A stretch of DNA of 60,265 nt, counting the filler, from Hausera hauseri (taxonomy: Eukaryota): the NCBI GenBank assembly GCA_046269625.1. It is 10 parts of 10 records of this genome, joined end to end, with 100 filler letters (N's around TTAATTAATTAA, not from the genome) between each part and the next. Parts side by side here need not be neighbours in the genome. Positions count along the whole stretch, not along the records: positions 10,225 to 14,411 come from JBJURY010712659.1; 9 more parts are not named here. One strand, 5' to 3'. The notes under the pieces were generated by a model, which was given only the letters and a program-made list of their open reading frames with translations, had not been told where the DNA came from and searched no databases. A program made the position numbers and the translations under genes. Numbering within the stretch: position 1 is the first letter of the stretch; each line of letters begins with the position of its first letter. Below are positions 144-14,905 of the stretch, piece after piece.

Positions 144-3100
144 CTATTCGGTTTTGGTACGTGTTAAACGTTGGATTCCATCTATAAACTTCTCCCTGCT
201 GTACGTATTGAATGTCACTCTGCGTGCCTTACTCGATGGATTTGTGATGGGCTGTTGAGTGATATTTCGTGATGGAGATGATAGTGAATAAGAGTCAAGC
301 AAAAAAGGCGATGCAATTGGAGGTGATGTAAAGACATTTAGAATATCGCTAGGAGTGCTAGCTGAGTTTGAGTTGGAGGTAGAATTGGCATCTGGAATGT
401 CGTTAATGAAGAAAGCGGGCTTCAAGTTCGAAATATGGATGTTGTAAGGTTTATCTTGGCGTAAGATGGTTGCAGTGTGAGATGAAAGATTCAACATATT
501 GAGGTCTAAAACCAGAGGGAGATTGATCCTTGTGGGAATATATATCCTTAGGCATATAGAATTTGTTGTTATTGAAGAGGCGACAGAATGAATCTGAGCT
601 AACCCCGATGAAGTGAGATAGTGCCGCACGAATGTTTTCGCCTGTAGGGTTGTCGTCAAGATCAGAAAGCTCAAATAAGGCCCGAATTGGAGTCCCAAAT
701 AGTGCTTCGTCTGGAGTACAACCAGTAGTGGTAAAGTGCGTCTTGCGCCAACCTAGTAGAACAAATGGTAGAATGGACGTCCAATTACGATGAGTGTCAG
801 CCAATACTTTTAAGGAAACTTTTATTGTTCGATGGAACCTTTCAACAAGACCATTTGCTTGAGAATGATATGGTGTAGTATAAAAATTGGATATTCCCAA
901 GCGTTTGACAAGTGATTTTAAAAGTTCCGACTCAAATTGTGGACTTTTATCCGTTATTATGTAATGTGGGAAATCAAAGCGACTGATCCAGATTTTAATA
1001 AAGGCGTCGGCAACTAAATCAGTGTTCGTTGAACGAAGAGTAACGGCTTCAGGCCAGCGAGAAGCACGATCCATCATGGTAAGTATATGTTGATATCCGT
1101 TGTCTGAAGGTAAATGACCAACGTGATCAAGATGAACTGTATGAAAACGTGATGTACAGGGAAAATGGTACAGCGGCGGTTTAAGGTGTTTGTTGATTTT
1201 GTATTTTTGACAGGCTACACATTCCTTAACCTAGCCCTGTACATCTTTGCACATTGATGGCATATTACATGACGTTGAAGCAGGCGAAAGATTGCTTTCA
1301 AACCTGGATGATGGAGTGAATGCGTATAAACAAAAGCTGGCTTTTGTAAAGGTGGTGCTAGAATGATCTTTTTATTACCGATGTTCGAAGTATTATAAGC
1401 GATGCCACCGATGATCTCGAAAGATTTGAAGGAAATAAGGAGGTCAGCAGACGGTAGATTTGCCTTTAACATTTCGGATGAGAAAATTGGCTCAATTGTG
1501 ATGGAGTCAACCGACCCCGATAGAAAATCTGCTACCAGATTATCTGTGCCTGAGACGTGTTCCAAAACAAAGCTGAAAATAGACAGGTATGATATATGTC
1601 GCTCTTGCCTCGGTGATGGCTGTTTTAATGACATGATGTGCAGGAGAGGCTTGTGATCAGTTTGAATGACAAATGAACGAGAGAGAAGTAGATGTTTGAA
1701 ATGTTTTACTGCCAGAACTATCGCGAGTAACTCACGGTCAAATGTTGAATAACGGCTTTTGGGTTGCGTGAGCTTTCGGCAATAGAATTCTAATGGTTCA
1801 TCGACGCCGGTTGTATATTTGGTGTAATATCGCACCAGTTGGTGTGGTCGAGGCATCGGTGGTAAGTATAAGATCTGCGTTGGGTTTTGGATGGGCCAGT
1901 ATTTCGACGGATTTTAGGCCATCGCGTAAGTGGTCAAACTTAGTGACTAAATCAGGAGTCCAGTGAATCAACTGCCTCTTTTTTCCGGATGATAAATGTG
2001 CAAAAGGTGCTGTGAGCTCAGACCAATGAGGTACGTATTTGTGGATGAAGTGGAGTGTGCCTAAGAAGCTTCTCATGTCCGTGGTAGTCGTTGGTAGAGT
2101 TATGTTCTTCAATTGTTGTAGTCGATCCGGTTGTGGAGAGTGGCCGTGAGGAATGATGACGTGACCTAGGAAATTTACACGTTTCTGAAAGAAATGACAC
2201 TTGGAGAAGTTGACTTGCAAATTGCTATGATGTAATCTGTGAAAGATAGTACGAAGGTGCTCTTGATGTTGTTTGACAGACGTAGAGGCAACTAATGTGT
2301 CATCAATATATGGATCAGCGAAGTCAAGGCCTGTGAGTACGGTATCAATGTGCCGTTCGAAAGTTTGAGAAGCACTACGTAAACCAAATGGCATAAAGAT
2401 ATATTCGTAGAGGCCAAATGGAGTAATAATAGCAGTTTTTGCAATATCATCAGGTGCAACAGGAATTTGATTATATGCTTTATGCAAGTCAATTGTGGAG
2501 TACGTATTAGTGTTGGTAAGGCTGTGCAGGATGTCATGAGAGGTAAAGGATAAGCATCCATGACTGTTAGATTATTTAACTGGCGATACTCACCGCATGA
2601 TCTGTATGTGCCAACTTTCTTCGTCACAACATGCAAAGGCGAAGCCCATGGTTATTTGGATCGTCGAATAATGCCAGCCGTTGCGAGTTCATTGAACTCT
2701 GATTCAACGGCTTTTCGCCTACGAGATGACAGTGGTCTGACCTTTTGTCTGATAAGTCTTTGGTGTTCGGTGACTACGCGATGATAAGTTGTAGAATGCG
2801 GCTTGAAATTGACGTCCTTCTTGAGAGTACGGAAACAAGAAGTTTTGATGTAGGATTTAAGATTGGATTCCAACGAAAAGAATGATGAGAGCATATTATT
2901 GAGAGTCAGTGGCTGTAATTGATGTAGAATAACTAAACACTTCATTAATGACATTCGGTTCAACTGATTGTTTCAAAATTAATTTGTTCCCACTTGACGA
3001 AATTGAAAATATAGATGAAATGTTAAGCGTGTTGTTGTCAACTGATGAACAGGATGTCACATTGACATTTGAATGAACCGAGGAAGACAAAGTGTCCGAC

Positions 3101-3450
3101 TGGTAGTTTGATGATCATTTGGTAGAGTTTGCAATAAAGTTTCTGCGCAGAAGGCATTTATGCATGCAATCGACTAAAAAATCGTATGCAGCCAAGAAAT
3201 CGGAGCCTATTATGGGCGATTTGATGTTGGCTATATGAAATTTCCAGGTGAATTTCCCTGGTACGTTGTAGAATGTGAAAGTCAGTTCTGTGGTACCTAC
3301 AATGTTCAAAGGTTGATCACAGGCAGTGAAGAGTGGAGGATAAAAAACTGTGTTAGATGTAAGAGCAAAAACAAAAGAAGAAGTAAAAAAGCAGCTCCTG
3401 AATCATTAAGCAAATCAATGTGTGATGTGTCTCCAAATAACAGATCAGCT
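144..3450 (-). pseudogene. pol: gypsy pol remnant (PR-RT-RH-IN plus C-terminal tail), copy A
   Basis: ORF fragments 3115-3309, 2652-2963, 2292-2636, 1798-2487, 1215-1856, 451-1077 and 144-698 tile the pol domains in order. Confidence 0.92.
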
Positions 3451-3451
3451 T

Positions 3452-4480
3452 TCAACAGAAAGACTGCAGAGGCGGTGTTAAAACGGTCAGAAGATTGAGC
3501 GATGTTTCCTGCGCCAGGTGCCGTAGAATCTGGCGGTATTGAGTTTTTTGGAGGATTTGGAGGAAAGGAAGAAGATGAAGAAAAGCTAGGAGATTTTTAT
3601 TGTAATATATACAACCAGGCACACATGATCTGGCCTGTGACTGATATTTGTTGTGGTATATAAAAATAGTATTATTTACAGCGAATCGCTCACTAAAGAA
3701 TCGACAGCCCAAGAAACATTTCCTTGCTTCCTTTCGAAAACGTCTGTGGTAGAAACAGGTCATACGTCCGCCAGGTGAAATAGACCAAGAGTGCATCGAA
3801 GTGCTTCGTACCCGTGAACGTCTGGTTTCACTTCGTTGAGGCCCATTAAGATTATTTTGTTGGGTAGTAATGGCCAAAATCGATTGTTGTAGCGTGTCAA
3901 ACTGTTGCAGCATCATTTGCAATTGTTGAGTAAAGAATGTTGTATCTGTAGTTGGAGAACATGTGATTGCAGCAGCAACAGTGAGAGAACTGTTAGTATG
4001 AAAAATATCAAAGGATTTGTCGGCTATTATTGCCAGTTTTTCGATAGCAGTGGATTCGTCAAGAACAATTAGTAAGGTACTGATTGAGTTGGGCAAAGAC
4101 GATAACAGCGAATTAAATCCGCGTTATTCGTAGGGGTCAGTACAAGCGCGCTGAGCTGCAGAATGGCCGTTTGGAGAAAGTCGGATGGCTTTTGGTTTCC
4201 TATTGCGTGGTTAAAATACTTTTGTGTTATGTTGTCAATCGAAGGATCCGTGACATGCAGTACAGCTTCACAAGGTGTCTCGTAAGGTGTCGAGGATTGT
4301 AACAGAGGAAGAATTCAACACAAGGTATGTTTAACAAACCTCGTGTCTGTTGGGAATGTGGCAAACGATAGACGTTGCCTGTATTTGTGGATTTGTCATC
4401 CGATCAGGATGCATTTGGATCCGATCCACCCCGGAGGCGAAAATAGAGCATAAGGTGGATGACTGGACGTTCATGGCATA
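3452..4480 (-). pseudogene. gag: gypsy gag remnant with two CHCC-type knuckles, copy A
   Basis: ORF 3452-4096: LAIIADK, coiled-coil, CFYHRRFRKEARKCFLGC and IYHNKYQSQARSCVPGC. Confidence 0.85.
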
Positions 4481-5180
4481 CGAAAGACGAGTGAGTCGAC
4501 AAGATGTACAGTGATACCACGATGTGTGAAATAGAAATTGGCAGTGCCGACTGAGGAGAATAGAGAGGTGTATAGTAGCTCTGCCGCGGATATGAGTGGA
4601 GCCTTAATGGTCGTTGTGTTTATTGTTATTGAAGATAAGGAAAGAGAGTTACAACGAAGCAATTCCAGGAGAATGGTAAAATGTAAAAGGAGCTTGTGCG
4701 GTTTGCTTCCGTGTTAATAAGAGATATGGGTGTGCAGTCGGGATAGCGGTGGCAAGTGATGATTGGAGTAAAGGAGTATCCAAAGATATTAAGTTGAAAA
4801 ACCTTTTAAAGTGCAAGAGGGTGTGAACTATAAAGGATTTGTAAATGCAAAGAACATGGCCGCACCGGTAAACATAAATCAGTAAAAAGAACTTCACCCA
4901 CCTGTGTTTGAATATCTGAGTCCTGGCTGCCGACTTTGGCCACATCTGAAATGTTTTCCCCCATGGATCATCCTTGTTGATTAAATTGACGCAGGTCCCG
5001 TCGACACCTCACAAATATTTGTTCTTTCTTTCTAAGGTTTCAATAGTATTTCAACTAGACTTTTGCTGAACATTTTGATTTCCAAGTTGATATCCTGTTT
5101 TCAAGTCATCGTTTCGAATTTCTTAGCAGTCTTCTCCAATTCTTTGTTCTGTTCAGCCTTTTTCTTTTGCAATTCATCGA

Positions 5181-5280
5181 NNNNNNNNNNNNNNNNNNNN
5201 NNNNNNNNNNNNNNNNNNNNNNNNTTAATTAATTAANNNNNNNNNNNNNNNNNNNNNNNNNNNNNNNNNNNNNNNNNNNN
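5181..5280. other. Artificial contig linker (N44-TTAATTAATTAA-N44)
   Basis: Exactly 100 bp with a six-frame stop core; identical linkers occur nine times in the window. Confidence 0.99.
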
Positions 5281-5360
5281 GAAACGGAGGCCCGGCCGGA
5301 CCCAACCAAATTGGCCAAAAAACACTGGCCGGTGTGGGAACGACATTACCCCCCCCCCCC
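5281..5360 (-). repeat. Polypurine tract (5349-5360) and start of 3' LTR (5281-5345) of gypsy copy B
   Basis: Minus strand G12-TAA-TGTCG...; the sequence just upstream of the PPT (plus strand gtggcaa...aaactataaag) matches copy A. Confidence 0.8.
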
Positions 5361-8300
5361 GTGGCAAAGTGAAAACTATAAAGATTAAAACAGACGGAAA
5401 AAAACAGGCACTAAACGAAAAAGTGTAGGTGTCAGTCGGTCTTAGCGTGGACAAGACGTTGGGTGCCTTCTACTAATTTTTCCCCGCTATACTTGCTAAA
5501 TGTGACTCTGCGTGTTTTTTCTTTATGCGGTGTGTTTGCTTTCAGAGTTTGAAGTTGGGGACAAATTGTCGGATTTTGTTGTGAGTGTTGTGTTGTGCGA
5601 AGACGAGTCAGAATGAAGAGAATAAAAAGGTAAAGGAGGAAGAGAGATTGTTGAAGACGGATGGTTAAAGGTATTCAAGAGAGTTTTAGAAGACGAAGGA
5701 ATGATAAAAGGTGTAGCGGCGGATAAAGGAAGAGAGAAAAAGATGGAGTAGAAGTTGGAATTGAATTGTGTAAAAGAGTGGAAATGGAAGATGAAGCACA
5801 AGTAGCGGTAGAGAGAGGAAGAGAGATAGGGATAGAAGTAAAGAGAGAAGGAAGTTGAGAAGCGGAAATGAAACGGGTAAAAGACTGTGTGAGGAGAAAG
5901 GGAGAAAGAAAGCGCCGAAGATGAAAAAGATGTGGAAGGAGAAGGCGAGAGAAAGAAGACGACGAAGAAGGACAAAACGGAAGAGAATAAGAAGATGGAG
6001 AAGGCAAAGGAAAGTAGTTGGAAAGTGGTATGCAAGAGGTTGAAATGATGAAAGGGGTAGAAGGATAGATTGGTGAAGTCGAAGTGGTGTTTGATGGAGG
6101 AGGTATTCTAAGAGGAAAAAGCAGGTTGTCATCAGGGGATGAAAGAGGTGTGAAAAGGCTTGAAGGTGCAAAATCGGATGGGGAAAAAGAGTCTGAATTG
6201 TCAGAAGATATTGAAGTAGAAGTCTTTGGAGAAAACGTAGGTAAAAGTGGATTAAGAAATTGAGCAGAGATGGTAGATGAATTTTTGGATTGCTGCGCGT
6301 CATGTAAAGATGTTGGTGGAGAAGTGGTTTCGATGGGAGCAGTATCGTCAATAAAGAAATCCGGCTTAACGTTGTTGATGTAGACTGTTACTTCTTTGTC
6401 GTTTTTAAGAATGATGATGTTGTGAATGTAAACGAATTACTTTGTAAGGGCCAACATACTGAGGTTGAAAACCACACGGCGTCTGATACTTCAGCCATAC
6501 GAACTTGGCAGTATATAAATCGTCGAATATGTAAGGTTTATTTCCATGTAATAATCCACAAAATGAATCTTTACTGATGTCAACGAAGTGTCTCTGTGGC
6601 GCCTGTATGGTTTCGTTTGTAGGAATATTGTCCAGCTCAGCCAGCTCGAATAATGATCTGATAGAAGCACCAAATAATGCTTCTGCAGGTGAACAGCCTG
6701 TAGAAGTAGATAATGTGTTCCGCCAGCGCACTAAAACGTACGGAATGAGTGTAGTCCTACTGCGATTGGACTCAGCAAGGATTTTGAGAGACGTTTTCAT
6801 CGTTCGGAGAAAGCGTTCAAGAAGGACATTCGATTGAGGGTGATATGGTGACGTGTGAATGTGATTAATTCCCAATCGATTGACAAGAGCTTTAAACAAG
6901 TTGGATTTCAACTGTGGACCTAGGTCCGAAATGATGTGGCGAGGTGATCCAAACCTGCTGATCCAAGTGCGGATGAAAACGTCTGCGATTGTTTCTGTGT
7001 TGGTGCTCCGAAGCGGGACATCTCTGGCCATCGCGAGGAACGGTCCATCATTGTGAGGATGAACTGATAACCGTTGTATAAGGGTAGTGGGCCTACAATG
7101 TCAATGTGAACAGATTCAAAACGAGACGTGCAGGGAAAATTATATATTGGTGGCTTTAAGTGCTTAGTAACTTTGTATTTTTGGTACGCCACACACTATC
7201 TAACCCAAGCCTGCACGTCGGAGCGCATTGACGGCCATACTACTTGGTGTTGTAACAGTCAAAAAGTGGCCTTGGCACCAGGGTGGTGCAACGCATAACT
7301 GTTGTTGAGTGCTTCTTTTTGAAGCGACTCAGAAAGGATGACTTTAGGATTATTAGGTTTGAAGGTGTCAAGGGCCACACCGTCAATGGTTTTGCATGAA
7401 TTAAAAGATTTAAGGATGTCAGAAGGTGGCTGGTTTTGCTGAAGTTTGGATTAAGGGAAAATTGGTGCAAAATCAATCGATCTGACCGATCGGGACAAAA
7501 AGTCAGCTACTAAATTGTCGACTCCGTTTAAATGCTTAATTTAAAAATTAAATGTGAACAAATATGATATTTGCCTCTCCTGACATGGAGAAGGGGATTT
7601 CATGGTGAGAATTTGAAGCCAGGGCTTGTGGTCTGTTTGTATTGAAAAAGTTCTTGCAGTTAGCAGATGCTTAAAGTGTTTTACGGCAAGGACCATTGCA
7701 AGCAACTCTCTCTGAAAGGTAGAATATCTTTGCTCTTGTGCCGTAAATTTTCGAAAGAAAAATTCTAATGGCTCATGGGATCCATTTTTAACTTGATGGG
7801 GGACAGCATCTGCAGCTGTTGTGGATGCATCCGTAGTTATGAAGAGTTCTGCATAGGAATATGGATAGGCCAGGATTTCCACGGTTTTTAGATTACCTTT
7901 GAAGTGATCGAAAGCGTTGATTAGGGTGGCTGTCCATTGAATAGGCTGTTTTTTCTTGCCAAAGCTTAGTGATACAAATGGAGCGGTTAGTGTGGAGCAG
8001 TGTAGAATATACTTATGAATAAATTGCAAAGTTCCGAGGAAAGAACGCATCTCTGTTGATGTACGTGGTAGCTGTATGTTTTTGAGCTGTGTGATGCGCT
8101 CTGTCTTAGGTGAATGTCCGGAGCAGCTAATGACATGTCCTAGGAAGTTGACCTTATGTTGAAAAAAGAACATTTGGAGAAATTAATTTGCAAGTTGTTT
8201 TGGTGAAAGCGCTGGAAAATTAAACATAAGTGCTCGGAGTGTTGTTTTGAGGAATATGATGCAATTAGGATATCATCGATATAGGGATAAGCAAAGTCTA

Positions 8301-10000
8301 AACCTGAGAGAACTGTATCAATATGCCTTTGGAAGGTCTGGGAAGCGCTACGGAGTCCAAAAGGCATGAAAAGGCATTCGAAATGACCGAAAGGTGTAAT
8401 GACAGCCGTTTTCTGAATGTCTGCTGAGGCCACCGGAATTTGGTTGTATGCTTTATGCAAATCACTGCAGGAAAAAATGGTCAAACCATGGAGCCTGTGA
8501 AGGATACCGTTGATTAATGGTAGAGGGTAGGCATCCATTGTTATGATGTTGAGTTGGCTGTAATCACCGCATAGGCGAAAGGTACCATCTTTTTTTGGAA
8601 CCACATGCAGTGGTGAAGACCACGGGGATTCGGATCTTCTGGTTATTCCTGATTTTTCCAGTTCGTAAAACTTAGCCTCCACCGCCTGTCTGCGGCGAGG
8701 CAATAGCGGGCGGACCTTTTGACGTATTCGTCTTTGATCTGATGTTATTATGTGATGGAAGATGGATTGAAGTGGTACGAATGATTTGTCCTTTTGCAAC
8801 AGACGCGTGCAGGAAGACGAATATATTGCTATAAGTCATAGGGTAACAATAAAAAGTTATCAGGCGGTGTCGATGCATCGTGACTGGATGCAGTTGAGGT
8901 ATGAGTTGTAGACAAGGTATTGTGATAAAGTGGTATTTGGTGCAGGATCTTTGTGTTGAAGATGGTGTAGGCAGATGTAGTATTAGTAATAGGTGCCACG
9001 CAGTTGGCAATATCGTATTTGTTTCCGTAATAAAAATTTCTTTACAATGAATGATTATAAAAATAATTTAAATCGCAAGTCGTTTTCTTTATTATTGACT
9101 TGCTGGAAGCGATCGTCCGGATGGTTACCGAAATGCTGCTAATTTGATTAAAATTATTTCCGATCTATAAGGAATATCGTTTGCAGTCTACAAGTAAATT
9201 GTAGTGGGACAGAATGTCTGAACCCAATATAGGTGTGCGTACATTGGCTACTGTAAATTTCCATTGAATGTGTTTGGGAAATTTGGAAGGGTAAAAGTTA
9301 ATTTAGTAACACCAAAAGCTTGTAAAGTTTCACCGGACGCGGTGAACAGTTGATTTTTTGAAGCGAAATTGTTTTGGATGTTCTGTGTTTGTGGTAGTAA
9401 AGAGATTACTACGCTGGTGTCTATGAGAAAATTAATGTTTTGCTTTGTTGAAGTGACAACTGCTGCTTCCAACGTGAAAACGGCAAAAGAAATGTGTCGG
9501 CTTTCTTTTTATATGTTGTTGCCTTTGCTAGAACTTGCCGTGTGTCCTAGCGGCGAAATCAGTTTTTTGTAGCTGGTGAGTTTGGTCTGCTATTTTGTGT
9601 GAGTTTTGCAGTGTTGATTTTATTGTGCGTGTTGTAGTTACAGCCAGGTAGGAATTTTTGTGCTTTTATTCCAAATTTTGAGTGATAGATGCAAACGATG
9701 TTGCTTGTATTAAAATCGGGGAGTAAAATTTACAATCGATGCAGCATTTCTGAGCATTGTTACCAAATTTGTTGTGATAGTAGCAAATAGACGACCGCGT
9801 GGGTGAAGGCGACCGTCTTTGTCGTTGATGAAATATATTAGGGGAAGTAGCCCTAGAAAACCTCGTCGAGACAGCGTTAACTCATTTAATTTCTCATTTA
9901 TGTTATTGATTGTTTCTTGCAAAATTTGTTTGTCTGAGCGTAATTGCGCATTTGTTGCTGTAGCATTGCATTTTGTTGTTGGTGGTTTCTTGTTCATGCC
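5281..10000 (-). mobile_element. Degenerate Ty3/gypsy LTR retrotransposon, CsRn1-like (copy B)
   Basis: gag (ICYYHNKFGNNAQKCC ~9740-9790), protease (FLIDTS ~9420), RT 8140-8799 (YIDD), RNase H 7541-8173, integrase 6405-7192, long low-complexity tail 5432-6360. Confidence 0.95.
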
Positions 10001-10224: not shown

Positions 10225-13200
10225 ATGCAATATTGGTGGAAACCGAAGGGATATAGTGGGTTATTGAAGGGGGAGAATGTGCGATGTCAAAACGAGTTTA
10301 TCATTTAAATATTATGTAGATCCACCAGTGGATGCTAGGTTGTTTGCGAATTTATTCTTGTAACAGTTATAATTAAGAGGTATTTTGGATAATATCACCG
10401 GTGTTTTCATTAGGGGGATTGGAGTTTTTAGTAGTTTGGTTTATTTTATCAGGTATATTAGTGGAATCTAATGGTTTTGATCTAGTTTTGTTGTGGGTGT
10501 TAAAGATAAAGTAACTAGCTTTTATGACTGCGGCCGACATACGCTCAGCGAGAGGCTTGACTTCGGTTGAGAGGAAACCTAGTTGTTTCAGGATGGGATT
10601 ATTTTGAGTTAACTAGCTCCCAAGACTGCAGACGACAAAAGTGGAGACATGCATGTTTCTATTGTTAAAGCCTAGTTGAGATGGGTACATTGATTTTAAG
10701 GGGGTGTATTTGGTGACATAATCTTTGGCAACTTGTTGGACGGTTCTGAGACTGTCAAAGGACGATTTTACATCTGTGATGAAAGGTTGACCAGTTTTCT
10801 GTATGACGAGGTCTGGAATGTAGGTCATGTGACGCCAGGAGTGTTTTTTCTCTCTAGCAACATTCAGGCCTTTTGCCAGGATAGCTTCTGTGAGAATATC
10901 TAGGACTTTGTCGTGACGAGAAGTAATTAATAGTTCATGGTGTTTACATAGGTTAAGTACATGTGGTTTTGATTCTTTATAATCATGGCATAGGCAGCAG
11001 TGGCGAGTTAGACATAGTTTATCCTGAAATCCTCGATGGTTTAGTGGGAGTAAGTTGTTTCTGGCGACATAGGCAAATCTCCACGTATCGGGACTGAGGA
11101 TTATAGATGACATAACTAGGTTAGAGTAACTATGAAGTGCTAGCATGTTGGCGCATTTTCCTTGGACTTTTTTAAGTTGAGCTTTAGATTTGATCAGAAG
11201 AGTTATGGTGATGGATTTGCCTTCGTGTGTGTTTGGAGTTTGGTTAATTGGTTTACGCCATTTCTCAAAGTAGTACGTGTGAATAAGTTTGTGAAGTTCT
11301 TTACAGCAGTTATCGGCTTTGGTGGGAAGAATTTCGAGATCTTGGCCCAGTCTGTGGACCATGAGGATTACGTCGTCATCAGCATCAAGTTCAAATTTGC
11401 ACGTTATTTCTTTGCGGCGGAGATGGAAGACTGAGTCGCGAATTTTTTTCCACCAAGTAGTGCTTGGAGCATGTTTTATTTCGGTAGAGGCGGAGCTTAT
11501 CCACCTCAAAGATTCAGAGAGTTCTATACTGTTGTGGAATCAGTCACGAATGACTCACAGTAGGTGGCATTTGGCAAAGTATCTAATGTTGTGGTCGTCG
11601 CTATTAAGGAGTTGATGAGCTTGCACAATATTTTGGATCACATATTCATCTTTCATGGACAGTAGGCCTAGTCCATCTTGGTCAGAGCCCACAAAGGGGA
11701 AATCTGTACCAGCATCGTTGGTTGAGGGTTTTAGGATTTTGTCTTTGAGAATGCACATGAATTTGGCATTAAAGTTTAGGTAAGTGAGATTGCCCGATTT
11801 ATGAGTAGTGTTACGTCCCAGTGATGTCTAGTTAATTACGCTGTTGCTGAAGTAGAATTGTGTGGTGGAGAAAATAAATGTTTTGTATGCGTGGATTTTT
11901 TGGGCTGGATGGAGAGCAGAGTCGGTAATGATGTTTCAGATTTCGAGATTGTGATGCAGTAGATCATCGAGTTTTTGTTTCTTTTGGTTGTCGAATGGAA
12001 CACCGAGGTATCTATAATATTCATCACCTATTATTGTAAGTACTATTTGTCCATTGATAAGTAGGTCCGGCATATCATCCTTTTTATTCATGCTAAAGTA
12101 GCTACATTTGCTAGGATTAAATGTGAGATTGACCTTAGATGCTAAGTCTACTATTTTATTGAGGTATTTTTGAAGGTCAGCGTGAGATTTTGCAAGGTAG
12201 ACTACATCGTCTGCGTATGCCAAAGAGCGTAATGGTTTGTAAAATAGTGTTACTGGATCGGTGATTGTTTGTTCAGTTTTGGTTAAGAGGAAGTTGATGA
12301 CAAGCGAAAAGATTGTCATGGATAAGGGACCACCTTGTCTAATACCACGTTTGATGTCTAGAGCAGGTAGAGTTTTTGAATGAGGAGTCTTATATGTGGG
12401 TTTAGACCCATTTTTCTAGAGCGTGATTGATGAAATGGTGTGGGGTTGAAGAGAATGCTTCCTTGAGATCAACGAAGCACATATGTACATGTTCTTTAGG
12501 ATATCGGACTACATATTCTTTGAGCGCTATCAACAAGAAATTATGTTTTGAGTATGCATTGGAGGCTCCGATGGCTTTTTGATAGGGACGTAAAAGGTCT
12601 CCAAAGGCTATCCATTCCATAAGGCGACTATTTATGAATTTGGTAAAGATACGGTAAGAGGTATCCAGGACCTCAATGGGACGCCATGAGGATATTAAAG
12701 TATGAGTAAGCTTCTTTACCTGGTTATGTATCAAGGTAGTTTTGAATGATTTCCATTATGTGGGGATGTCTAAGTTTAGAAGGACATGGTTGAATAACGT
12801 TTCCAGAGCAGTAAAATTAGGGTCTAATGTTTTCCAGTGTAAATATTCAATCTCATTTTCGCCAGGGCTGCTTTTTTGCATTTCTTGAAAGCCTTTTTGA
12901 TACCGTCAGTGGATATTGGTGAGTTGGTGAAGGATTCTTTGGCAGAGGGCGCATTATAGAAAGTATAGTTGATGTTTGGAATGTTTGGAGAGGTTTGTGT
13001 ATAGTGGCTAATCACCGCTTGTCTAGAGAAAAGTGAGAAGTTTATGGACGGGTGTAAGATTTTATTGAAGACAATTTTTGGAACTCTTTTGTATTTGAGT
13101 GTAAGGAGGAAATCAGATTGTTCCGTTTGACGAGTGTTTGTGATTGCGTGTCTGGTATTTTTTCAGTTGTTGGGAAGAGTTCTTTTTTGGCTCTTGCTGC

Positions 13201-13389
13201 TTCTTTGAGAAAGTATGTGGCCCCTAGGCCTGATGTGTTTAGATATAATATGGCTTTCTCAATAAGGGGATGGGTGGTTTTATCTTCTTTTTCTTGAGAT
13301 TTTGGAAGTCTACGTACTCGAGTACGAGTTGTGCTACATCTTTTCTCATTTTATCAGGGTCGCAGTTTGGAAAGAAAGAATTTCTGTAT

Positions 13390-13830
13390 TGGCCGTAGTG
13401 GACAGCATAGAGGAGCACAAAGAAACCACCATCCTCGCATTTTTATTGTAATGAGTAGTCACGAAGGAAAGAGATGTCCAAGCGTTCCTCTATTGAGATG
13501 TATGAGAAGTGGTATAGTAGTTCAGTAAGTTTGGCGGTTATGTCGATGTGCTCTTGAGTGGGTTTATTGGTGGCGGGGTCGATATTGAAGCAGAAGTGGT
13601 CAGGGCGTTCAGAGACAAAGAGTAACCAGTGAGAGGCGCGTACGCGTATGGGCCACAAAATAATTTGCCAGTTGGCGAAATAATTAAAGGGAAAAAGTTG
13701 GAATAGAAATCTTTCATCAGATTTTAGCAGTGCTGACGCCGATAGAGGATTCACAAACAGAACACCCAGATAATCAGCGCATTTCACCCGGATGGAGAGT
13801 TCGATCGTTTAGTCCCTTAGTCATGCACTG
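13390..13830 (-). pseudogene. Ulp1/C48-like cysteine protease domain 2 of the NeSL-like element (catalytic Cys degenerate)
   Basis: GLND...ILWPIRVRASHWLLFV...NIDP...LQ*KCEDGGFFVLLYA matches the C48 pattern WLND / HW / D / Q..DCG.FV; the expected TGT codon reads GGT. Confidence 0.75.
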
Positions 13831-14279
13831 TTGGATATCTATATTGGGATATCTATATTGTTAAATTTATGGGATTTTAGAAAGTTGTTAGAGGTAAGGT
13901 TTTCTTGACTGAGTTCGTCTCGATGAGTATCACGGCAATGGCGGGTGGCTGTTGTTTGTGGTAGTTGGGTTTTACAGAGTAGGCAATAGAAGGCTACGTC
14001 GTGTAAGACGGAGGTGTGAGTTTTCAGTTTTAAGTGTTGAAAAGTTCTGTGTTGGAATCTGGAGGTGTTAGGTAGGTATGTCGATTGGAAAAAACAACGA
14101 CCTAAGTTGCATTGTAGTACTAGTTGGTTAGTTGATGTTTTGATTAGGAGGAAAGCAGTTTCTGTGGTTGTGGAGGAGTCATCAGAGGTGGAGTTTGGCG
14201 CTCCCGCGGTATATGAGGGTTTCTCAGGAGTACTGGTTGATAGAGGAGATTCTGGAGAGAGATTAGTGGAAGCTCGTAT

Positions 14280-14411
14280 AGACTCTACATCGACTTTAAG
14301 ATATGTGGCATCTGCAGCTAGTTGGAGCATGTAACCACAGACATAGGGACCACAGTCATTAGAGTTTGAAAGAGGTTGGTGGTCTTTATGTTCATATTGA
14401 CCTCTGAAGGT
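14280..14411 (-). pseudogene. C-terminal part of Ulp1/C48-like protease domain 1 of the NeSL-like element
   Basis: In frame upstream of ORF 13839-14330: HQPLSNSNDCGPYVCGYMLQLA, the Q..N..DCG.YV catalytic-Cys motif. Confidence 0.72.
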
Positions 14412-14511: not shown

Positions 14512-14620
14512 CTCTTTCACAATGGAAAATGAAATAAAAAATAAAATTAAAAATAAAATCACCGGTTAAAAAAAAAACAAACTGAAAAGTAATTTCGCAC
14601 ATCTAATGTATCTTAGTATA

Positions 14621-14905
14621 GCCGCGGTGGCGTTGTGGTTAGTGCGCTCGTCTGCCGATCCTGTGGTTACGGGTTCAATACCAGCTGTGGGCATTGAATT
14701 TTTATTAAATCAAAAGGCTCCAGGGGCCCACCAAGCCTCAAAAATGGGTACCGGAGAAATTCTCTGGGAAAGTAAAGGCGGCTTGACATTATGCTGACAA
14801 CGTAACCCAATTATGCGCCGATGTCTAGGAAAATGTGTGGACACTAACTCTACATTGACCTATACGCCTTCTTAGGCGTGTACAATGGACTTTACTTTTT
14901 TTTTT
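14621..14905 (+). mobile_element. tRNA-headed CORE-like SINE
   Basis: Pol III A box (gtggcgttgtggt) and B box (ggttcaatacc), central aatgggtacc...gtaaaggcggct...gctgacaac, T-rich tail, imperfect flanking repeat taatgtatc; related copies at 50245 and 58012. Confidence 0.8.

Follow-up and report, generated by a model that had tools for sequence, protein, structure and literature searches.

The window analysed here is a stretch of 60,265 nucleotides from Hausera hauseri (assembly GCA_046269625.1), in which ten parts of ten records are joined end to end. Positions 10225–14411 are the whole of one contig (G000:C712659) and hold, on the minus strand, a copy of a non-LTR retrotransposon of the restriction-like endonuclease (RLE) type that is interrupted by stops and frameshifts. 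Because the contig ends at position 14411, the first of its two protease domains is truncated in this copy. The features are:

10225–10327, no strand assigned: end of another multi-copy repeat, unrelated to and outside the element, interrupting the 3′ UTR of the window copy
10328–14411, minus strand: decayed RLE non-LTR retrotransposon copy, 5′ part missing, 3′ UTR broken after ~45 nt
10373–10999, minus strand: CCHC knuckle and RLE (RH..PD..D-x-K), with the ORF end TAA at 10375–10373
11990–12830, minus strand: reverse transcriptase (RT), YADD at 12217–12206, RVT_1 E 3.7e-15 and 5.3e-6, broken by stops and frameshifts
13325–13823, minus strand: C48 domain 2, with His 13631–13629, Asp 13580–13578, Gln 13448–13446 and the nucleophile codon 13430–13428
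13741–13814, minus strand: extended hairpin (predicted) beginning 6 nt downstream of the stop; the window copy has it in eroded form
13818–13823, minus strand: in-frame TGA-CTA, where the domain-2 W-L-x-D has its Trp codon; likely readthrough site, from copy comparison
13923–13985, minus strand: zinc finger 2, C-x2-C-x11-H-x4-H, ligands kept across families
14016–14111, minus strand: zinc finger 1, C-x4-C-x19-H-x5-H, ligands kept in the L074/L113 and L143 families
14199–14213, minus strand: Y-T-A-G-A in the S/T/P linker; by sequence comparison a candidate self-cleavage site
14261–14411, minus strand: C-terminal part of C48 domain 1, with Gln 14378–14376 and the catalytic Cys codon 14354–14352

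The original prediction was of an RLE non-LTR element whose two Ulp1-like domains flank a pair of zinc fingers, and motifs, Pfam and sister copies agree with it. On the minus strand, QPLSNSNDCGPYVCGYM (14378–14328) is followed by the S/T/P linker between domain 1 and the zinc fingers, CNLGRC (14111), HLKLKTH (14036), CLLC (13985), HCRDTH (13940), HWLLFV (13631), IDP (13583) and Q*KCEDGGFFVLLYA (13448–13404), with RT, CCHC and RLE after it. The motif ‘GLND’ had been read in the wrong frame; in the correct frame, domain 2 opens Ala-[TGA]-Leu-Ser-Asp-Trp. The conserved stop, the Gly-Gly site and the U1 target described below were absent from that prediction. A neighbouring stretch of the window (14560–14905, plus strand) holds a SINE-like repeat with a tRNA-like head, as judged by eye.

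A DNA search gave 30 matches, and 19 other loci, 84–92% identical to the window copy, were fetched. Further searches extended the element by ~4 kb on the 5′ side and 0.9 kb on the 3′ side. One locus, L063, overlaps the start of the window copy over 75 bases, all identical, and has 1,391 open codons ahead of the domain-1 Cys, which gives a full frame of roughly 2,700 codons. The loci fetched after a protein search of G000 (67 matches) form five families. Among them, L143 is near-intact, with 1,356 open codons, TGA-CTT, and then 948 open codons; its three C48 domains, two of them with Cys and the other with Ser, all score above the Pfam cut-off. In the element, an N-terminal region is followed by one or two C48 domains with Cys, a pair of zinc fingers, the UGA, a Ser-C48 domain, RT, CCHC and RLE, where the segment before the UGA comprises ~1,500 codons and the segment after it is in the same frame. 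Within the N-terminal region a domain of ~90 residues is duplicated (L143:4917-8984, residues ~330–620; L063, residues ~790–1030); it has no Pfam or Atlas match, and the N-terminal 620 residues have no ESM Atlas match. In the ESM Atlas search the top match scored 0.88, and RVT_1 occurs together with C48 in 28% of members. No fused relatives of 2,548–5,000 residues were found by search, which we take as weak evidence. Locus L069 (G000:C718102) carries an internal deletion that fuses the N-terminal region to the middle of domain 2. The 3′ UTR is long (~0.9 kb), conserved, ends without a poly(A) tail (L047:640-1440, L043, L070) and has no Rfam match at these loci.

The RT is nearest to the R2 type, matching R2 chains at E 1e-94 to 1e-51 and LINE-1 at E 1e-37. 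The RLE motif matches that of relatives (BLASTP E 1e-8 to 1e-31), and phmmer against PDB sequences gave no match for the RLE. By sequence, the element is an RLE (R2-group) non-LTR retrotransposon. A profile search of 1.84 billion representatives was carried out, from which the best 150 matches were taken; among these and the earlier matches scanned, 56 proteins have C48-like domains, several of them in tandem. In a quick RT tree, supported by SH-aLRT only and covering 54 of 143 RT rows, the element clade of 10 rows (99) groups with multi-domain relatives (92), and the nematode NeSL branch (98) is separate from it. The anchor of that branch, P0164, was identified by eye, its protease start being that of the NeSL-1_CJap row in S5 Fig of PMC4640811. 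As judged from this tree, the element is outside nematode NeSL. The R5/LIN lineage of flatworms is probably its place, on a basis that includes the tRNA-like end of L161. R5 elements have two ORFs, a layout present in the element family.

Domain 1 is complete in L002, L003 and L063. The original prediction would have failed had its first protease segment, once extended, lacked the remaining motifs; the other copies extend it with the Trp, His-Trp and Asp motifs, and there His is present in 13/13, Asp in 12/13 and Cys in 15/16. Together with Gln, the His-Asp-Cys set is thus intact, as expected of a C48 active site. In the proposed Pfam check both domains matched Peptidase_C48: domain 2 passes the cut-off in L004 (E 6.5e-6; 0.016 in the window), domain 1 stays just under it (E 7e-4 and 1e-3), and neither the window’s own domain-1 fragment nor L017 matches. 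The Gln-to-Cys spacing in the window family’s domain 1 is two residues longer than in SENPs.

Viral clan CE proteases cut after Gly-Gly or Ala-Gly. Such motifs accompany the active domains here: Ala-Gly is found in all ten window-family rows with the linker in frame, and Gly-Gly or Ala-Gly follows the zinc-finger-proximal Cys domain in 4/4 G000 families. Furthermore, nine of ten relatives with a further domain downstream have Gly-Gly 44–52 residues after DCG (the tenth has Gly-Ser-Gly), compared with none of eight whose Cys domain leads directly into RT; the background is 3.5% of 16-residue windows. Counting against self-cleavage, the window family has Ala-Gly-Ala rather than Gly-Gly, and no such motif follows the first Cys domain of L143. 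We lean slightly towards domain 1 cutting its own protein at this site, as the motif comparison suggests, and the polyprotein processing envisaged earlier stays a live option. The reading as a ‘dual protease’, with two active enzymes in one protein, is unsupported because an in-frame stop separates the domains and domain 2 has no Cys.

Ulp1 and NeSL domains start with Trp-Leu-x-Asp (S5 Fig, PMC4640811), and it is at this Trp that the stop is located. TGA is present in 14/15 copies of the window family, L009 having TGG, and no other stop reaches a majority at any of the 2,302 positions covered, against a background of 164 stops in 23,788 cells. Across 28 aligned loci in five families that are 36–63% identical, TGA is found in 24 (the exceptions being TGG, TAA, TGC and GGA) and CTA follows in 27. 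In L143 the codon is unchanged in contigs of runs X1, X2 and X3, of which X1 may be the source of the assembly. Four of 79 metagenome loci match the front of the query, and three of these have an in-frame TGA-C upstream: L160 and L163 carry TGA-CT at the same Trp, with Cys retained in the domain, and L161 carries TGA-CAA ~17 codons ahead of it, flanked by frames of 734 and 1,148 codons. The fourth, L200, has what we take to be an APE-type motif. All nine close-clade database proteins (FastTree) start inside the domain, several on contigs far longer than the ORF, as would fit a stop upstream of it. Because gene callers place the start of these proteins inside the domain, databases do not show the layout.

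The frame downstream of the stop is, by its substitution pattern, under purifying selection. Thus, dN/dS is 0.13–0.21 in six between-family pairs and 0.15 and 0.31 in two within-family pairs (13 of 21 pairs being saturated), and 0.07–0.17 over the first 50 codons in three of seven pairs (the other four saturated). No in-frame Met reaches a majority until 159 codons downstream. In addition, UGACUA with a 3′ stem-loop is a type II readthrough context (PMC13517186), and the stop here lies in one of the two type II hexamers, UGACUA and UGACGG. In-frame TGA-CGG or TGA-CGA also lies upstream of RT in L162, L169 and L171, which are broken relatives lacking the Ulp1 domain; UGACGG, the other type II hexamer, is the one in L162 and L171.

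The predicted hairpin of 17 pairs has 89.7% of cells paired, compared with 83.2% in shuffles and 27–45% in slid controls, scored on the same sequences from which it was drawn. The number of pairs with double-sided changes was not significant (42/500 shuffles). Single-sequence z ranges from −3.9 to +0.34 over nine sequences, with +0.34 in the window and −1.5 to −3.9 in other G000 copies; L160 (z −0.8) and L113 (z −1.5) are weak cases. As a caution, UGA plus structure alone did not direct readthrough in Tca2 (PMC2194720). On the strength of codon conservation and context, we nevertheless consider programmed readthrough of the conserved UGA probable.

Two other explanations of the codon were rejected. 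A host code with TGA as Trp is contradicted by L143: its 2,305 codons include 28 TGG and one TGA, despite a preference for A over G at the end of Lys, Gln and Glu codons (274 versus 93). Selenocysteine was dismissed since an Rfam search of four 3′ UTR loci at E 0.5 gave no SECIS and the position is that of Trp, not Cys.

The absence of a catalytic Cys from domain 2, noted in the original prediction, is borne out by multiple copies: the nucleophile codon is AGT/AGC (Ser) in 13/15, Gly in the window and Ile in L069, and Cys in none of the 15. As the family codon is AGT/AGC and never Cys, the window’s GGT derives from AGT rather than, as had been suggested, from TGT. His and Asp are each kept in 16/16 of the window family, with Gln six residues ahead of the nucleophile, and L143 likewise has Ser with His, Asp and Gln kept. 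The TAA at 13445–13443 is decay private to the window copy, 12/15 copies having CAA/CAG there. The closest solved structures are SENP/Ulp1, at 16–20% identity to SENPs; two PDB sequence matches have DSG at the nucleophile place, one of them titled SENP1 C603S (2G4D). The structure predicted for L143 domain 2 from a 17-row alignment has a pLDDT of 87, with the stop position inside its confident part, and Foldseek placed Ulp1 at the top (TM 0.72–0.77); prediction from the single sequence reached a pLDDT of 42. The Trp at the stop-codon position presumably roofs the di-glycine tunnel of the Ulp1 fold.

The original prediction also allowed that domain 2 had simply decayed. This we reject, given Ser across families, dN/dS of 0.13–0.21 between families for this domain and the Ulp1-like predicted fold. 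Several facts instead point to a conserved non-catalytic module, as far as sequence can tell: His is lost in two families (L110/L113 and L114), Ser is replaced by Ala in the L150 family and P0169, and distant relatives show all grades from Cys via Ser to fully degenerate. A role as a SUMO trap would be plausible by analogy, because Ulp1 C580S binds SUMO tightly and acts as such a trap (PMC3216068). The loss of His in two families fits a dead enzyme and less clearly a trap. Whether domain 2 would bind without cutting is, on this analogy, evenly balanced in our judgement.

Where the element inserts was sought by mapping its 3′ junctions, as originally suggested. The 3′ end joins U1 at nt 28, and the 5′ end is joined up to ~U1 nt 52. 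Five contigs share one upstream flank and then a U1-like 5′ end; five more have part of the U1-like leader without that flank, one of them beginning at the contig’s end, as would be expected if a U1-driven transcript had given rise to them. At its 3′ end, L087 continues into a match to U1 nt 28–68, which was equalled by 0/1,000 shuffles against three of five U1 genes and 3/1,000 against the other two; Rfam made no U1 call on this flank and gave E 0.1 on the L099 junction. One X3 contig runs from the leader into the U1 loop II motif ATTGCAC and is thus an empty U1 gene, and no empty U1 target was found in G000 by pattern search. Loose ends in X3 and X4 run from an element 3′ end through U1 nt 28 to a new 5′ end, contigs across this segment are present in 4/4 runs, and the implied target duplication is ~24–26 nt. 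Depth in X1 is 2,400–10,000 over leader and flank and 420–710 over the element start, a contrast that suggests a U1 array, although depth cannot be equated with copy number. The 3′ end is precise and the 5′ end variable across copies. An ATG at U1 nt 22–24 is in frame with the ORF in seven of nine junctions and out of frame in two.

These junctions make it very likely that the family targets U1 snRNA genes at nt 28. The specificity is loose: only 1/17 assembled 3′ ends lies in U1, and 10/17 continue with GA. Rfam and tRNA gene searches at the ends of the other families, L160, L161 and L163 found nothing; L161 ends by eye in the 3′ part of a tRNA-like sequence, where ARAGORN called no gene. No U2 match was found at nine end-bearing loci.

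Some internally deleted copies (L059:1248-1404, L060:1089-1248, L018 near 2216) are joined to an antisense, near-complete U1 of another type. The joints sit at a 7-nt microhomology, and the same joint in three contigs implies that the chimera was multiplied. At least three distinct U1 types occur in G000 (L128-L139), which suggests a mixed assembly. Some of them are, we assume, vertebrate-like.

Taken together, we propose, with a probability of roughly 0.6, that this is a U1-inserting RLE family in which a frame split by UGA is read through and the polyprotein, which includes a Cys-less binding module, is trimmed by a Cys protease. The U1 promoter would drive transcription of master copies, and the ORF would begin at the ATG of U1 nt 22–24. 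Most ribosomes would stop at the UGA and a minority would insert Trp or another near-cognate residue, such that rare readthrough would set a gag:pol-like ratio. Domain 1 would then cut after Ala-Gly/Gly-Gly to give a ZF-ZF-pseudoprotease-RT-RLE protein of R2/NeSL-like layout. In what is the weakest step, domain 2 might grip a di-glycine tail, SUMO-like or the element’s own cut end, without cutting it. More tentatively, one might see here a LINE lineage with retrovirus-like expression, resident in U1 snRNA arrays, in which U1 supplies promoter and start, type II readthrough of the UGA at the Ulp1 tunnel Trp sets the RT dose, the SUMO-type protease carries out maturation at a SUMO-mimic tail and a natural Cys-to-Ser change puts a SUMO trap on the RT.

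Counter-defence might alternatively be the main job, with a stop-terminated deSUMOylase stripping silencing factors and domain 2 tethering the RT complex to SUMOylated chromatin. The kinship to SENP/Ulp1 is in keeping with this, as is the large excess over RT in which the stop would put the Cys domain; L143 also has two Cys domains, beyond the need of one self-cut, and in the G000 families domain 2 keeps an acidic residue at the place of Ulp1 D451 (for its role, PMC3216068). However, substrate choice is unreadable from an identity to SENPs of only 16–20%, the two extra residues between Gln and Cys set the window family’s domain 1 apart, and the Gly-Gly motif beside the active domains points to the element’s own protein. 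Our literature search found no paper tying a transposon Ulp1 to silencing. We regard counter-defence as unlikely. Somewhat less likely still, the second ORF could be made by non-AUG reinitiation, an internal promoter, trans-splicing or A-to-I editing of UGA to Trp. There are precedents in the termination-reinitiation of SART1 and LINE-1, in SART1 with downstream structure (PMC5972666), and in the junction promoter of Tca2 (PMC2194720), and the TGG of L009 would suit such a route. Against it, a conserved in-frame AUG is absent for 159 codons, the overlapping ATG in the window family lies in another frame and has no counterpart in the L150 family, and AG dinucleotides after the stop are in differing frames among families; the stop falls on the first conserved residue of a folded domain, within a known readthrough hexamer, and Rfam found no SECIS in the four 3′ UTR loci.

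It seems very improbable that domain 2, on its Ulp1 scaffold, works as a serine protease. The conserved His, Asp, Gln and Ser of the window family and L143 would allow it, but the same His is lost, or Ser turned to Ala, in the families named above, fully degenerate domains are kept in more distant relatives, and a Cys-to-Ser change inactivates Ulp1 (PMC3216068). Finally, the stop and the Ser could be lesions of a dead master mobilised in trans, as the broken state of the window copy might suggest. This we rejected and give almost no credence: both features are common to five families with saturated synonymous sites and shared by metagenome relatives at 27–34% identity, and L143 is otherwise open over 2,305 codons.

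The proposed readthrough family resembles nematode NeSL and Utopia-1_TSP (PMC4640811) in its RLE non-LTR type, in a Ulp1-like domain that precedes RT, in its W..D, HW, D and Q..CG motifs and in inserting close to where a small-RNA gene begins; Utopia, too, shows tandem insertion and a ~20-bp TSD (PMC4640811). It differs in its internal UGA and U1 target. Furthermore, all 12 element rows of S5 Fig in PMC4640811 have one Cys-bearing domain, whereas two or three domains are found here, the last with Ser. Nematode NeSL targets the spliced leader, whereas the junctions here are U1-like or unrelated, and the RT does not group with NeSL-1; Utopia targets U2 snRNA. With R5/LIN of flatworms the family shares varied small-RNA targets and many off-target copies, but the LIN targets published in PMC4640811 are 28S, tRNA-Arg and tRNA-Glu, and the available part of that paper gives LIN neither a protease domain, as found here, nor readthrough, as predicted here. 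Dada-U1 and Keno likewise have snRNA gene targets; unlike the present RLE element at U1, Dada is a DNA transposon and Keno is APE-type and U2-specific (PMC4640811, PMC8869645).

The stop and its predicted 3′ stem-loop before the polymerase have counterparts in the type II UGA-CUA of alphaviruses (PMC13517186) and the gag-UGA-pol of the LTR element Tca2 (PMC2194720). Here, by contrast, the element is non-LTR, the stop replaces a conserved Trp within a protein domain and readthrough is a prediction. Domain 2 has the same fold and substitution as Ulp1 C580S (PMC3216068) and SENP1 C603S (title of PDB 2G4D); those are engineered, whereas it is natural, transposon-borne and 16–20% identical, with binding predicted by analogy only.

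The available part of PMC4640811 (2015) lists no non-LTR element for U1. Our literature search turned up a paper on NeSL proteases and, among the papers examined, no description of tandem or dead copies of them, of readthrough in an RLE element or of a U1-targeting non-LTR element; Repbase and the original accounts of NeSL-1, R5 and R2 may already describe a two-ORF junction or extra proteases. Within this scope, the locus contributes the combination itself, a Ser as the replacement for Cys, a stop placed on the domain’s Trp and U1 targeting with a U1-borne start codon.

To our knowledge, the role of the Ulp1-like domain in NeSL-type elements is still open. The family supplies a named candidate cut site, a live and a dead protease copy and the near-intact L143 for testing it. 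Non-LTR elements are known to use reinitiation and 2A skipping as coupling routes (PMC5972666); stop-codon readthrough, if true, would be a further, gag-pol-like one. As the target of an RLE element, U1 would be new, and as such relevant to site-specific insertion tools.
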